64,000 bases of DNA, from assembly GCF_044324785.1 (NCBI RefSeq), contig NZ_CP172129.1; one strand, given 5' to 3'. This document shows positions 51,001 to 60,000 of this stretch, piece by piece (within the stretch, counting starts at the first letter, position 1; every line of letters begins with the position of its first letter). This stretch comes from Escherichia coli (GTDB lineage Bacteria > Pseudomonadota > Gammaproteobacteria > Enterobacterales > Enterobacteriaceae). Made by a program: the position numbers.

Positions 51001-54000
51001 GTTCGTTCAGTATTGTTGCAGCAGTAGAGCTGGATGATGCCAGCCATTTACGACCGGAACGCAGACGCCGGGATATTCTTCTGGAAGAGGTTCTGAGGCA
51101 GGCTGGTATTCCGTTGCTCAGAAGCCACGATGCCAGAAAACTGCTGCAGATGACCGGAGAATGGCTGAATACAACAGGGGCTGATCAGCAGTCCCCGGAA
51201 CATCGTAGCTGACGCCTTCGCGTTGCTCAGTTGTCCAACCCCGGAAACGGGAAAAAGCAAGTTTTCCCCGCTCCCGGCGTTTCTATAACTGAAAACCATA
51301 CTATTTCACAGTTTAAATCACATTAAACGACAGTAATCCCCGTTGATTTGTGCGCCAACACAGATCTTCGTCACAATTCTCAAGTCGCTGATTTCAAAAA
51401 ACTGTAGTATCCTCTGCGAAACGATCCCTGTTTGAGTATTGAGGAGGCGAGATGTCGCAGACAGAAAATGCAGTGACTTCCTCATTGAGTCAAAAGCGGT
51501 TTGTGCGCAGAGGTAAGCCTATGACTGACTCTGAGAAACAAATGGCCGCTGTTGCAAGAAAACGTCTTACACACAAAGAGATAAAAGTTTTTGTCAAAAA
51601 TCCTCTGAAAGATCTCATGGTTGAGTACTGCGAGAGAGAGGGGATAACACAGGCTCAGTTCGTTGAGAAAATCATCAAAGATGAACTGCAGAGACTGGAT
51701 ATACTAAAGTAAAGACTTTACTTTGTGGCGTAGCATGCTAGATTACTGATCGTTTAAGGAATTTTGTGGCTGGCCACGCCGTAAGGTGGCAAGGAACTGG
51801 TTCTGATGTGGATTTACAGGAGCCAGAAAAGCAAAAACCCCGATAATCTTCTTCAACTTTGGCGAGTACGAAAAGATTACCGGGGCCCACTTAAACCGTA
51901 TAGCCAACAATTCAGCTATGCGGGGAGTATAGTTATATGCCCGGAAAAGTTCAAGACTTCTTTCTGTGCTCGCTCCTTCTGCGCATTGTAAGTGCAGGAT
52001 GGTGTGACTGATCTTCACCAAACGTATTACCGCCAGGTAAAGAACCCGAATCCGGTGTTCACTCCCCGTGAAGGTGCCGGAACGCTGAAGTTCTGCGAAA
52101 AACTGATGGAAAAGGCGGTGGGCTTCACCTCCCGTTTTGATTTCGCCATTCATGTGGCGCATGCCCGTTCCCGTGGTCTGCGTCGGCGCATGCCACCGGT
52201 GCTGCGTCGACGGGCTATTGATGCGCTGCTGCAGGGGCTGTGTTTTCACTATGACCCGCTGGCCAACCGCGTCCAGTGCTCCATCACTACGCTGGCCATT
52301 GAGTGCGGACTGGCGACGGAGTCTGCTGCCGGAAAACTCTCCATCACCCGGGCCACCCGAGCCCTGACGTTCCTTGCAGAGCTGGGACTGATTACCTACC
52401 AGACGGAATATGATCCGCTTATCGGGTGCTACATTCCGACCGATATCACGTTCACACCGGCGCTATTTGCCGCCCTTGATGTGTCTGAGGATGCAGTGGT
52501 TGCTGCGCGCCGCAGTCGTGTTGAATGGGAAAACAGACAGCGTAAAAAGCAGGGACTGGATACCCTGGGTATGGATGAACTGATAGCGAAAGCCTGGCGT
52601 TTTGTGCGTGAGCGTTTCCGCAGTTACCAGACAGAGCTTAAGTCCCGTGGAATAAAGCGTGCCCGTGCGCGTCGTGATGCGAACAGGGAACGTCAGGATA
52701 TCGTCACCCTGGTGAAACGGCAGCTGACGCGTGAAATCTCGGAAGGGCGCTTCACTGCCAATCGTGAGGCGGTAAAACGCGAAGTGGAGCGTCGTGTGAA
52801 AGAGCGCATGATTCTGTCACGTAACCGTAATTACAGCCGGCTGGCCACAGCTTCCCCCTGAAAGTGACCTCCTCTGAATAATCCGGCCCGCACCGGAGGC
52901 ATCTGCACGCCTGAAGCCTGTCAGCGAACAAAAAAACAGCACCGCATACAAAAAACAACCTCATCATCCACCTTCAGGTGCATCCGGTCCCTCCTGTTTT
53001 TGATACAAAACACGCCTCACAGACGGGGAAATTTGCTTATCCACATTTAACTACAATGGACTTCCCCATAAGGTTACAACCGTTCATGTCATAAAGCGCC
53101 AGCCGCCAGTCTTACAGGGTGCAATGTATCTTTTAAACACCTGTTTATATCTCCTTTAAACTACTTAATTAGGGGGCACCTCAGAAAACGGAAAATAAAG
53201 CACGCTAAGGCATAGCTGACCTTGCCAGGCCTGCTTCGCCCTGTAGTGACGCGATCAACGGGCAGGAAACATTCCCCTTTCGTGCATGGCAGGCGCACAC
53301 GAGTTCAGACAGCACGGTTTCCATGCGCGCCAAGTCGGCCATCTTCTCGCGCACGTCCTTGAGCTTGTGTTCGGCCAGGCTGCTGGCCTCCTCGCAGTGG
53401 GTGCCATCGTCGAGCCGCAACAGCTCGGCAATCTCGTCCAGACTGAACCCCAGCCGCTGTGCCGATTTCACGAATTTCACCCGAACCACGTCCGCCTCCC
53501 CATAGCGGCGGATGCTGCCGTAAGGCTTGTCCGGTTCCCGCAACAGGCCCTTGCGCTGATAGAAGCGGATTGTCTCCACGTTGACCCCGGCCGCCTTGGC
53601 AAAAACGCCAATGGTCAGGTTTTCCAAATTATTTTCCATATCGCTTGACTCCGTACATGAGTACGGAAGTAAGGTTACGCTATCCAATCCAAATTCAAAA
53701 GGGCCAACGTATGTCTGAACCACAAAACGGGCGCGGTGCGCTCTTCGCCGGCGGGCTGGCCGCCATTCTTGCATCGACCTGCTGCCTGGGGCCGCTAGTA
53801 CTGGTCGCCCTGGGCTTCTCCGGTGCTTGGATCGGCAACCTGACGGTGCTGGAACCCTATCGACCGTTGTTCATCGGCGCGGCGCTAGTGGCGCTGTTCT
53901 TCGCCTGGAAGCGGATTTACCGGCCCGTGCAGGCATGCAAGCCAGGTGAGGTCTGCGCGATTCCGCAGGTGCGCGCCACCTACAAGCTGATTTTCTGGAT

Positions 54001-57000: not shown

Positions 57001-60000
57001 CCGTGTTGACCTGCCCCTGCCATCTGCCGATTCTCGCCGCCGTGCTGGCCGGGACGACCGCCGGTGCCTTCCTTGGCGAGCATTGGGGTGTTGCCGCGCT
57101 CGCGCTGACCGGCTTGTTCGTTCTGGCCGTAACGCGGCTGCTGCGCGCCTTCCGGGGCGGATCATGACGAGTTCGCAGCCCGCCGGATGGACGGCGGCCG
57201 AGTTGGCGCAGGCGGCGGCGCGCGGACAGCTTGACCTGCATTACCAGCCGCTGGTCGATCTGCGCGATCACCGGATCGCTGGCGCGGAAGCGTTGATGCG
57301 CTGGCGGCATCCGAGGCTTGGCCTGTTGCCGCCCGGCCAGTTCCTGCCGCTGGCCGAGTCGTTCGGCCTGATGCCGGAAATAGGCGCGTGGGTGCTGGGC
57401 GAGGCCTGTCGCCAGATGCACAAGTGGCAAGGACCGGCATGGCAACCGTTCCGTCTTGCCATCAATGTGTCCGCCAGCCAGGTTGGGCCAACGTTCGACG
57501 ACGAGGTAAAGCGGGTGCTGGCCGATATGGCCCTGCCCGCCGAGCTTCTGGAGATCGAACTGACCGAATCGGTCGCATTCGGCAATCCAGCCCTGTTCGC
57601 CAGTTTCGACGCCTTGCGCGCCATCGGCGTGCGCTTCGCCGCCGACGACTTCGGCACCGGCTATTCCTGCCTGCAACATCTGAAATGCTGCCCCATCACC
57701 ACATTGAAAATCGACCAATCCTTTGTCGCCAGGCTCCCGGATGATGCCCGTGACCAAACTATCGTGCGGGCGGTGATCCAGCTCGCGCACGGGCTGGGCA
57801 TGGATGTCATTTTCAGAAGACGACTGCACCAGTTGATTGGGCGTAATGGCTGTTGTGCAGCCAGCTCCTGACAGTTCAATATCAGAAGTGATCTGCACCA
57901 ATCTCGACTATGCTCAATACTCGTGTGCACCAAAGCGAGGTGAGCATGGCGACGGACACCCCACGGATTCCAGAACAAGGCGTGGCCACTCTGCCTGATG
58001 AGGCTTGGGAGCGTGCGCGCCGTCGTGCGGAGATCATCAGTCCGTTGGCGCAGTCGGAGACGGTCGGGCACGAAGCGGCCGATATGGCGGCTCAGGCGCT
58101 GGGCTTGTCTCGGCGCCAGGTATACGTTCTGATCCGGCGTGCCCGGCAAGGCAGCGGCCTCGTGACGGATCTGGTGCCCGGCCAGTCCGGTGGAGGTAAA
58201 GGTAAGGGGCGCTTGCCGGAACCGGTCGAGCGCGTCATCCACGAGCTACTGCAAAAGCGGTTCCTGACCAAGCAGAAGCGCAGCCTAGCGGCCTTTCACC
58301 GCGAAGTCACTCAGGTGTGCAAGGCTCAAAAACTGCGAGTGCCGGCGCGCAATACCGTGGCCTTACGGATCGCTAGCCTTGACCCGCGCAAGGTCATCCG
58401 CCGGCGGGAAGGCCAGGATGCCGCTCGTGACCTACAAGGTGTGGGCGGCGAGCCTCCTGCCGTGACCGCGCCGCTGGAGCAGGTGCAGATAGACCATACG
58501 GTCATCGACCTGATCGTGGTCGATGACCGCGACCGGCAACCTATTGGCCGCCCGTACCTGACCCTCGCCATCGACGTGTTCACCCGCTGCGTGCTCGGCA
58601 TGGTCGTCACGCTGGAAGCGCCGTCTGCCGTTTCGGTTGGCCTGTGCCTCGTGCATGTCGCCTGCGACAAGCGCCCTTGGCTGGAAGGACTGAACGTGGA
58701 AATGGATTGGCAGATGAGCGGCAAGCCCTTGCTGCTCTACCTAGACAACGCGGCCGAGTTCAAGAGCGAGGCCCTGCGCCGGGGTTGCGAGCAGCATGGC
58801 ATCCGGCTGGACTATCGCCCGCTGGGACAGCCGCACTATGGCGGCATCGTGGAACGGATCATCGGCACGGCGATGCAGATGATTCACGACGAACTGCCGG
58901 GAACGACCTTCTCCAACCCTGACCAGCGCGGCGACTACGATTCCGAAAACAAGGCCGCCCTGACGCTGCGCGAGCTAGAGCGCTGGCTCACATTGGCGGT
59001 CGGCACCTACCACGGTTCGGTGCACAACGGCCTGCTCCAACCGCCGGCCGCGCGCTGGGCCGAGGCCGTGGCGCGTGTCGGCGTACCGGCCGTCGTCACA
59101 CGCGCTACTTCGTTCCTGGTCGATTTTCTGCCGATCCTCCGGCGCACGCTGACCCGCACCGGCTTTGTCATCGACCACATCCACTACTACGCCGATGGGC
59201 ACTGTTGCAAATAGTCGGTGGTGATAAACTTATCATCCCCTTTTGCTGATGGAGCTGCACATGAACCCATTCAAAGGCCGGCATTTTCAGCGTGACATCA
59301 TTCTGTGGGCCGTACGCTGGTACTGCAAATACGGCATCAGTTACCGTGAGCTGCAGGAGATGCTGGCTGAACGCGGAGTGAATGTCGATCACTCCACGAT
59401 TTACCGCTGGGTTCAGCGTTATGCGCCTGAAATGGAAAAACGGCTGCGCTGGTACTGGCGTAACCCTTCCGATCTTTGCCCGTGGCACATGGATGAAACC
59501 TACGTGAAGGTCAATGGCCGCTGGGCGTATCTGTACCGGGCCGTCGACAGCCGGGGCCGCACTGTCGATTTTTATCTCTCCTCCCGTCGTAACAGCAAAG
59601 CTGCATACCGGTTTCTGGGTAAAATCCTCAACAACGTGAAGAAGTGGCAGATCCCGCGATTCATCAACACGGATAAAGCGCCCGCCTATGGTCGCGCGCT
59701 TGCTCTGCTCAAACGCGAAGGCCGGTGCCCGTCTGACGTTGAACACCGACAGATTAAGTACCGGAACAACGTGATTGAATGCGATCATGGCAAACTGAAA
59801 CGGATAATCGGCGCCACGCTGGGATTTAAATCCATGAAGACGGCTTACGCCACCATCAAAGGTATTGAGGTGATGCGTGCACTACGCAAAGGCCAGGCCT
59901 CAGCATTTTATTATGGTGATCCCCTGGGCGAAATGCGCCTGGTAAGCAGAGTTTTTGAAATGTAAGGCCTTTGAATAAGACAAAAGGCTGCCTCATCGCT

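Follow-up and report, generated by a model that had tools for sequence, protein, structure and literature searches.

The mer half of a Tn21-derived transposon lies within the putative IncFII replication origin of an Escherichia coli ColV-ColIa plasmid

Results

The mer module next to repA1 is that of Tn21

We analyzed a stretch of 64,000 nucleotides (nt) of Escherichia coli plasmid DNA (contig NZ_CP172129.1 of assembly GCF_044324785.1), referred to below as the window, in which a mercury resistance (mer) module follows repA1, the initiator gene of an IncFII-family replicon. The module contains the terminal repeat IRmer, merRTPCADE, urf2, the integron end IRt and the first 1252 nt of tniA, and it is bounded on its far side by the insertion sequence (IS) IS26 (Table 1). 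In the original prediction for this DNA, the module was an immobilized Tn21 remnant abutting the replication origin. Here we report that the transposon appears to lie within the origin rather than beside it, and that IS26 joins its truncated tniA to a fragment of sitB whose orientation is inverted relative to that in a related plasmid.

Alignment of the module with a Tn21 reference, a comparison that had been called for, showed that 53172..59197 equals 59..6084 of Tn21 in R100, with 0 mismatches over 6026 bp. From the DNA sequence, we identify this stretch as the mer-proximal 6 kb of a Tn21-derived transposon. A search of the window recovered the 38-bp Tn21 terminal repeat IRmer (GGGGGCACCTCAGAAAACGGAAAATAAAGCACGCTAAG) as an exact match at the predicted place, 310 bp beyond the repA1 stop. 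With up to 3 mismatches allowed on both strands, it was the single copy in the window (chance expectation, 0), and a second Tn21-family terminal repeat was absent. The guanine-plus-cytosine (GC) fraction rose from 0.47 at 52800..53199 to 0.62 at 53200..53599 and peaked at 0.71 within the mer module, in keeping with the acquisition boundary that had been placed at this step.

The mer genes were named by NCBIfam equivalog or subfamily models scoring above their curated cut-offs, and merR, merT, merP, merC, merA and merD were all recovered in this way. For merE, a 78-codon open reading frame (ORF) was read directly and its name was taken from the pCERC4 annotation; merE was not scanned as such, and the ORF submitted at its position had no NCBIfam match. 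The operon is thus complete, as predicted, by the NCBIfam matches, the merE ORF and the identity of its DNA with R100. The MerR protein in the pCERC4 annotation and in R100 is WP_000429836.1. The string at 53645..53675, with its dyad TCCGTACATGAGTACGGA, is presumably the mer operator/promoter (merOP) of Tn21. The urf2 protein (WP_001300294.1) is that of R100 and matched EAL-domain phosphodiesterase models only, all below their NCBIfam cut-offs. While urf2 is intact in the Tn21 sense, as had been stated, its ORF represents the 5' part of urf2M and owes its final 22 codons to the IRt end of the integron, with the stop 66 nt past the IRt start.

The stop codon of merR lies within IRmer, so that merR transcription points at the origin remnant, 34 bp past the stop. 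Read-through into the region of the DnaA box and RepA-binding stretch may be possible.

The insertion falls within the predicted core of oriR

The FII control circuit of the window is complete and comprises copB (repA2), CopA RNA, tap and repA1. Beyond repA1, a DnaA box (TTATCCACA) lies at 53037..53045 and is followed by two TCNTTTAAA repeats at 53129..53137 and 53152..53160. The transposon was inserted after 53171, which is 126 bp beyond the last base of the DnaA box, so that it separates these two repeats from a third. In the uninterrupted sequence, the third repeat (TCATTTAAA) begins 3 bp beyond the pentamer AATTA and leads into more DNA rich in adenine plus thymine (AT); a Ter-like site (AATTATGAATGTTGTAACTA) follows after some 230 bp, and then the repA4 region. 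This far-side DNA, with the right part of oriR (the third repeat and the remaining AT-rich stretch), Ter and the repA4 region, was found nowhere in the window. A text search of the literature for the TCNTTTAAA motif returned nothing.

Although the replicon of the window differs from that of R100 at about 6% of positions overall, no difference separates the two over a stretch of about 120 bp that spans the insertion point. When ten IncFII-family replicons were aligned, invariant columns were densest (93 to 97%) at 53111..53170 and remained frequent for about 65 bp on the far side. While oriR is contiguous in R100 and nine other replicons, it is broken after 53171 in the window.

The minimal oriR is reportedly 188 bp long; it starts at a DnaA box, continues for about 100 bp that bind RepA and closes with AT-rich DNA. 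The functional labels that we place on the parts of oriR follow the R1 and R100 literature. On this map, about 135 bp of oriR presumably stays with repA1, and about 53 bp is displaced together with the start of the leading strand, Ter and repA4. The transposon thus appears to split the conserved core of the IncFII origin rather than to adjoin the origin. The first description, in which the module abuts the origin, understates its position.

Relatives carry a Tn1721/Tn21 hybrid transposon at the same site

The junction between origin and IRmer was found at 100% identity and in one piece in 27 plasmids among 5,426 complete E. coli genomes. The 8.6-kb block from repA2 to the outer end of IS26 was 100% identical in many E. 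coli plasmids of about 150 kb, and at least 121 PLSDB records covered at least 80% of a 10-kb query. The plasmid lineage is that of the FII-2:FIB-1 ColV-ColIa plasmids, represented by pCERC4 (KU578032) and pCFS3313-1 (CP026940.2).

The close relatives all keep the other half of the element, which carries its transposition functions. In pCERC4, IS26 is followed by the 3'-conserved segment (3'-CS) of the integron, dfrA5, intI1, tnpM, tnpR and tnpA, and then by yacAB and colicin Ia. In pCFS3313-1, IS26-bounded strAB-sul2 and blaTEM units lie between IS26 and dfrA5-intI1. Identity with Tn21 in the relatives was about 100% up to res and about 76% through tnpR and tnpA, which places the switch from Tn21 to Tn1721 in res, and the TnpR and TnpA of the pCERC4 element differ from the R100 proteins. 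The Tn21 repeat IRtnp was sought in pCERC4 and not found; the far end of the element there reads as a Tn1721 repeat (GGGGAGCCCGCAGAATTCGGAAAAAATCGTACGCTAAG) followed by AATTA.

The same five bases stand before IRmer in the window, which holds the left copy of the target duplication alone, the right copy being known from pCERC4 after the Tn1721-type repeat. When an empty site was reconstructed from the left flank of the window and the right flank of pCERC4 with a single AATTA, it was found at 100% identity and in one piece in many plasmids. This confirmed simple transposition with a 5-bp duplication. The missing end of the element had been expected to be a Tn21 end. However, the relatives end with a Tn1721 repeat, Tn1721-type tnpR and tnpA and a matching AATTA, and looking for a missing Tn21 end would be fruitless even in whole relatives because the partner end is of the Tn1721 type.

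A Tn1721/Tn21 hybrid transposon has been described in FII-2:FIB-1 ColV-ColIa plasmids (Moran and Hall, cited in PMC12804835 and PMC8813906). The structure is already known, and the module is the mer half of this hybrid at a site shared across the lineage. The element is ordinary except for its place, which is inside, not beside, the IncFII origin.

The IS26 cut in tniA is shared with other resistance loci

IRt (TGTCATTTTCAGAAGACGACTGCAC) has the position that it has in Tn21 of R100, which is that of an In2-type integron within urf2M at the Tn21 site. R100 tniA is annotated at 4833..6512, and the copy in the window ends at IS26. Both IRt and the cut of tniA by IS26 at 59198 were read in the sequence where they had been predicted. 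A complete Tn402 tni module, with tniA, tniB, tniQ and tniR beside IRt, was not found in the window, where IRt is present, tniA is truncated and nothing lies past its nt 1252. Using blastn with regions of pCERC4 and pCFS3313-1, we found that matches in the window were confined to the collinear backbone, the mer module and IS26. The intI1 regions, used to look for intI1, attI1 and IRi, and the tnpR, tnpA and res regions of both plasmids had no match in the window, and the predicted absence of tnpA, tnpR and integrase from it was thus borne out.

A tniA lacking the same 428 nt beside IS26, with IRt and a Tn21-identical mer module beyond, has been described in resistance loci of the Tn6029 type, in E. 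coli O104:H4 and in related plasmids (PMC4326458), and the tniA-IS26 stretch of the window also matched O104:H4 chromosomes. Because of these two observations, the tniA/IS26 cut is taken to be an old and widely shared signature, not one peculiar to the present plasmid.

IS26 joins tniA to an inverted fragment of sitB

The IS26 of the window is 100% identical to the IS26 copies of pCFS3313-1. Its flanks are CGCCGATG on the tniA side and CTGTGAAG on the right, so that an 8-bp duplication is lacking. Such unequal flanks point to a secondary event, which may be a deletion, an inversion or a recombination. A 6-bp match to the relatives past IS26 was considered as a real extension and dismissed, since the flank is CTGTGAAG here and CTTGATAT in the relatives.

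Past IS26, the window carries the 5' end of sitB. Position 151189 of pCFS3313-1, which corresponds to 60018, is nt 88 of its sitB (150449..151276, minus strand). Beyond sitA, the window runs through IS1 to its end. From 7994 to IS26, the window and pCFS3313-1 are collinear. The segment with sitB-5'/sitA/IS1, in contrast, has the opposite orientation to that in pCFS3313-1, the one relative mapped end to end. In the other relatives for which both positions were listed, mer and sit lie on opposite strands. A simple IS26 adjacent deletion cannot yield the inverted sitB join. The inverted orientation fits an inversion that placed the other half of the element outside the window, not a deletion.

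We searched for the tniA-IS26-sitB junction in one piece among 72,556 PLSDB plasmids and the 5,426 complete E. coli genomes and found none. The nearest case was pS34_1, in which an independent IS26 insertion lies 85 bp away in sitB. One guessed partial SitB variant at the junction in the window gave no exact product on record, a result that is uninformative.

Comparison with known systems

The module shares with Tn21 of R100/NR1 (NC_002134) IRmer, merRTPCADE, urf2, the In2 insertion point and the first 1252 nt of tniA. However, tniB, IS1353/IS1326, the 3'-CS, aadA1, intI1, tnpM, res, tnpR, tnpA and IRtnp of R100 Tn21 are absent from the window, and while Tn21 of R100 sits in the IS1-flanked r-determinant, the module of the window sits in the FII origin. 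With pCERC4, the window shares the insertion site, the AATTA duplication, the mer-tniA-IS26 block and the backbone. The IRmer of pCERC4 is interrupted by IS4321, and its IS26 is followed by the integron 3'-CS, whereas the window has an uninterrupted IRmer and the 5' end of sitB past IS26. The plasmid pCFS3313-1 and similar plasmids of about 150 kb with Tn6029-type IS26 units are collinear with 7994..60017 at 99.9 to 100% identity. They differ in having strAB-sul2-repC, blaTEM and dfrA5-intI1-tnp past IS26, a whole sitABCD and ISEc12 where the window has an empty site, and in having no IS5 between traS and traT. The Tn6029/Tn6026 loci (O104:H4 GI3 and pASL01a; PMC4326458) have the same tniA truncation point beside IS26, IRt and a Tn21-identical mer module, but they lie in a chromosomal island or other plasmids, and the other flank of IS26 differs.

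Other IncF plasmids with two replicons, one of them silent, such as pCG86 and pEC958, are alike in that a transposon has struck one FII-family replicon, or the plasmid can do without it, and another replicon sustains replication (a concept discussed in PMC4398462). The window differs from these plasmids and from RepFIC of F in that the initiator gene and the control circuit are kept, while the origin itself is split and its inactivity is what we infer. RepFIC of the F plasmid is interrupted by Tn1000. The plasmid pHNAH8212R-1 (CP104614.1) is an FIB+FIC plasmid of the ColV type, in which IRmer likewise adjoins what is left of the FII origin and a Tn1721 repeat forms the opposite end of the element. 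Its IRmer is fused 238 nt past the repA1 stop, which is 75 bp closer to repA1 than in the window (45577..45846 of the record), and at its other end (35680) the Tn1721 repeat abuts yacA, with 805 bp of backbone on the right flank gone and no target duplication. In addition, IS26 cuts the mer operon of pHNAH8212R-1 after merR. These features indicate that transposon-adjacent deletions removed most of oriR, Ter and repA4 from that plasmid.

An independent IRmer insertion was seen in pZ1323CEC0009-2 (CP148454.1, 80 kb; locus 1703), 855 nt past the repA1 stop and beyond the origin and the repA4 region.

Other features of the plasmid

An IS5 of 1195 bp (37306..38500) with a 4-bp TTAG duplication lies at the extreme 3' end of traS, upstream of traT, and lengthens TraS from 169 to 177 amino acids; there is none at that spot in pCFS3313-1. 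The TraS-IS5 fusion was also seen in a single short-read contig of Logan, from SRR31073010, that stops within IS5. The insertion may perhaps be polar on traT, traD and traI. The sequence at 13174..13180 is the empty site of ISEc12 (IS21 family), which is present in pCFS3313-1, and a 7-bp overlap of the alignments marks the duplication there. Two segments of the leading region, 3987..4526 and 7213..7791 (about 0.55 kb each), are both 91 to 92% identical to one pCFS3313-1 segment near hok, which suggests a repeated hok/sok-like module. The window (its last bases, 63990..64000) stops where many records of related plasmids stop, and it is probably the final 64 kb of a record rotated so as to begin at RepFIB repA. 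In the present plasmid, the FII replicon, the mer remnant and RepFIB would lie within about 12 kb.

Table 1. Positions of the features at the IncFII replicon, the mer module and the IS26-sitB junction in the window
Feature	Position	Strand	Basis or remark
repA2 (copB), IncFII replicon repressor	51452..51712	+	NF010256, 138.8 bits (cut-off, 87)
CopA antisense RNA, copy-number control	51829..51919	-	Rfam RF00042, 106.3 bits (gathering score, 60)
tap, leader peptide just upstream of repA1	51937..52011	+	pCERC4 annotation
repA1, IncFII-family initiator	52004..52861	+	TIGR03474 incFII_RepA, 584.7 bits; coordinates from pCERC4 annotation
oriR, retained left part	53037..53171	+	DnaA box, RepA-binding stretch and two TCNTTTAAA repeats; cut from right part by transposon
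AATTA, left copy of 5-bp target-site duplication	53167..53171		Same 5 bp after the Tn1721 repeat of pCERC4
IRmer	53172..53209	+	Exact 38-bp match; uninterrupted
merR	53205..53639	-	NF010315, 313 bits; coordinates mapped from pCERC4 annotation
Presumed mer operator/promoter (TTGACT, dyad, TAAGGT)	53645..53675	+	Exact string
merT	53711..54061	+	NCBIfam, above cut-off
merP	54075..54350	+	NCBIfam, above cut-off
merC	54386..54808	+	NCBIfam, above cut-off
merA	54860..56554	+	NCBIfam, above cut-off
merD	56572..56934	+	NCBIfam, above cut-off
merE	56931..57167	+	ORF; name from pCERC4 annotation
urf2, EAL-domain ORF, 5' part of urf2M	57203..57871	+	Partial EAL phosphodiesterase matches
IRt, 25-bp outer repeat of In2-type class 1 integron (Tn402 tni end)	57805..57829	+	Read directly
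tniA, truncated (1252 of 1680 nt kept, 428 nt gone)	57946..59197	+	R100 alignment stops at 6084
IS26, 820 bp	59198..60017	+	14-bp repeats at 59198 and 60004..60017
tnp26	59261..59965	+	NF033587 IS6 transposase, 275.5 bits
sitB, truncated (first 88 nt), joined to IRR end of IS26	60018..60105	-	60018 corresponds to pCFS3313-1 151189
sitA, whole, now apart from sitBCD	60105..61019	-	SitA in relatives; metal ATP-binding cassette (ABC) substrate-binding protein matches

Discussion

The arrangement at the junction suggests an IS26-mediated inversion of about 75 kb, after which the transposition half of the element may survive outside the window. By Tn3-family transposition, a Tn21-derived transposon came to lie in the FII-2 replicon of an IncF virulence plasmid of the ColV-ColIa type and duplicated AATTA. 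IS26 would first have truncated tniA, the old event that is shared, and would later have acted on sitB in the present plasmid. IS26 could have transposed into sitB by the intramolecular replicative route in its inverting mode, or it could have recombined with another IS26 copy that lay in sitB in inverted orientation. Both routes would invert about 75.6 kb and bring sitB-5'/sitA/IS1/RepFIB beside tniA.

An inversion predicts a reciprocal junction, ...ATATCAAG|IS26|CTTCACAGTACCAGG, with the integron, the Tn1721-type tnp half, the rest of oriR and yacAB elsewhere. The second IS26 would be in the opposite orientation, and the right side of its junction (CTTCACAGTACCAGGCGGATC) would be sitB from nt 81, with the 8 bp CTGTGAAG duplicated in inverted form. 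The Tn1721 repeat, then AATTACATTCATTTAAAAAG, the Ter site and yacAB would be found between the IS26 copies, and intI1, tnpR, tnpA and the Tn1721 repeat followed by AATTACATTCATTTAAA would be found elsewhere in the complete plasmid.

Instead of being inverted, the DNA from tniA to sitB may have been lost by an IS26 adjacent deletion. The plasmid would then lack the integron and the resistance genes, together with the tnpR/tnpA half of the element, the right part of oriR, yacAB and the ColIa region, and mer would be its sole resistance determinant. Deletions of this kind are frequent with IS26, the single IS26 here has flanks that do not match and form no direct repeat, and the missing parts are all absent from the window. 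However, an adjacent deletion keeps the orientation of its flanks, and since sitB-5'/sitA/IS1 is inverted relative to mer, an earlier rearrangement would be needed. The deletion would also have to take out the segment that approaches RepFIB from the opposite side, although the window stops exactly where the RepFIB repA of the relatives begins. We therefore regard a deletion as unlikely. It might also be proposed that the joining of tniA to sitB through IS26 reflects misassembly or represents one isomer of a pair that interconverts by homologous recombination between inverted IS26 copies, and that the structure of the relatives is the true or dominant one. The failure to find this junction in one piece in any PLSDB or complete E. 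coli record is in line with this proposal, as is the fact that IS26 is an 820-bp repeat present in several copies in relatives (three in pCFS3313-1). A misjoin would, however, need an IS26 at sitB, and pCFS3313-1, the one relative examined there, has a whole sitB, so that at least one real new IS26 event is needed even then. Moreover, the IS5 insertion specific to the window is confirmed in an independent short-read assembly, which shows that the strain is real. We consider an artifact or isomer improbable, less so only than a complete Tn21 that was inserted independently at the same site and is unrelated to the hybrid lineage. The IRmer end by itself cannot reveal the nature of the other end, but the window is 99.99 to 100% identical to pCFS3313-1 over 10.4 kb (backbone, junction, mer module, 428-nt tniA deletion and IS26) and 99.99% identical to pCERC4 over 13.8 kb of backbone. 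That the same base pair was hit and the same IS26 cut was made twice independently is not credible, and we give such an insertion almost no weight.

We thus consider it probable that the window holds the mer half of a Tn21-derived transposon, placed in the FII-2 oriR and later subjected to an IS26 inversion. Several points weigh against this account. The rest of the plasmid lies outside the window, so that inversion as opposed to loss stays a proposal. Four guessed partial SitB variants at the predicted reciprocal junction gave no exact product on record, although this is uninformative. The limits of the minimal oriR (188 bp from the DnaA box) come from the R1 literature, together with motif positions and conservation. 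In addition, the inactivity of the FII origin is itself deduced, and the inner part of IRmer, which is moderately AT-rich, could conceivably substitute for the displaced DNA: the first 30 bp to the right of the junction are 50% AT in IRmer and 73% AT in the native sequence.

Whether the split origin is dead or strongly impaired seems to us an even call. If the cut in the AT-rich unwinding region of oriR is lethal, the global ColV-ColIa lineage would have an origin-dead IncFII replicon with RepFIB as the sole driver, and we hold the chance of this to be slightly short of even. Replication of pEC958 is driven by an FII replicon that shares 99% identity with the one in R100, and transposon-directed insertion-site sequencing (TraDIS) of this plasmid showed that the FII oriV region and repA4 are essentially free of insertions when FII drives replication (PMC4398462). 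The carriers that were typed or inspected (pCERC4, pCFS3313-1 and pS34_1) also have RepFIB. The end of the window is the record end of relatives whose records begin at RepFIB repA, and RepFIB repA is predicted to start directly after base 64000 in the present plasmid. The plasmid is most likely replicated from RepFIB, and the split FII origin may be impaired or dead despite complete copB, CopA and repA1. The deeper IRmer fusion in pHNAH8212R-1 means that further loss of oriR is tolerated in the FIB+FIC plasmid type, which fits the FII origin being dispensable in that type.

The mobility inventory of the window consists of one Tn21-family repeat without a transposase or resolvase for it, one IRt without tni functions, and one IS26. 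With these parts, the mer module cannot move in the manner of Tn21, of an integron or of a compound transposon of IS26. The claim that the module is immobilized thus stands for its movement as Tn21; its transposition functions, which had been described as lost, may survive, as the relatives keep that half and the sitB join is inverted. Transposition is disabled under either inversion or loss, since an inversion too destroys the inverted pairing of the ends: IRmer and the Tn1721 repeat would then lie about 50 kb apart in direct orientation, which would be equally disabling. The Tn1721 transposase is said not to complement Tn21 ends, and the hybrid may therefore have had little mobility even in its complete form. 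The conjugative plasmid still carries the mer genes along when it transfers. The operon should still give inducible Hg(II) resistance through MerR at merOP, uptake by MerT, MerP, MerC and MerE, and reduction by MerA.

As a resistance module, the remnant is a textbook case with published relatives and adds little. Its place in the replicon has wider consequences. If the origin is dead, the replicon would still make CopA, CopB and RepA1, and the plasmid would still be scored as F2 and still exert FII incompatibility. Replicon typing reports an FII allele whose origin is physically split, and it may mislead on which replicon drives copy number and incompatibility. The operon for the iron/manganese transporter SitABCD, a ColV virulence marker, is broken by IS26 in the present plasmid. 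One IS26 beside a fixed remnant keeps reshaping this virulence-resistance plasmid and has probably inverted about half of it.

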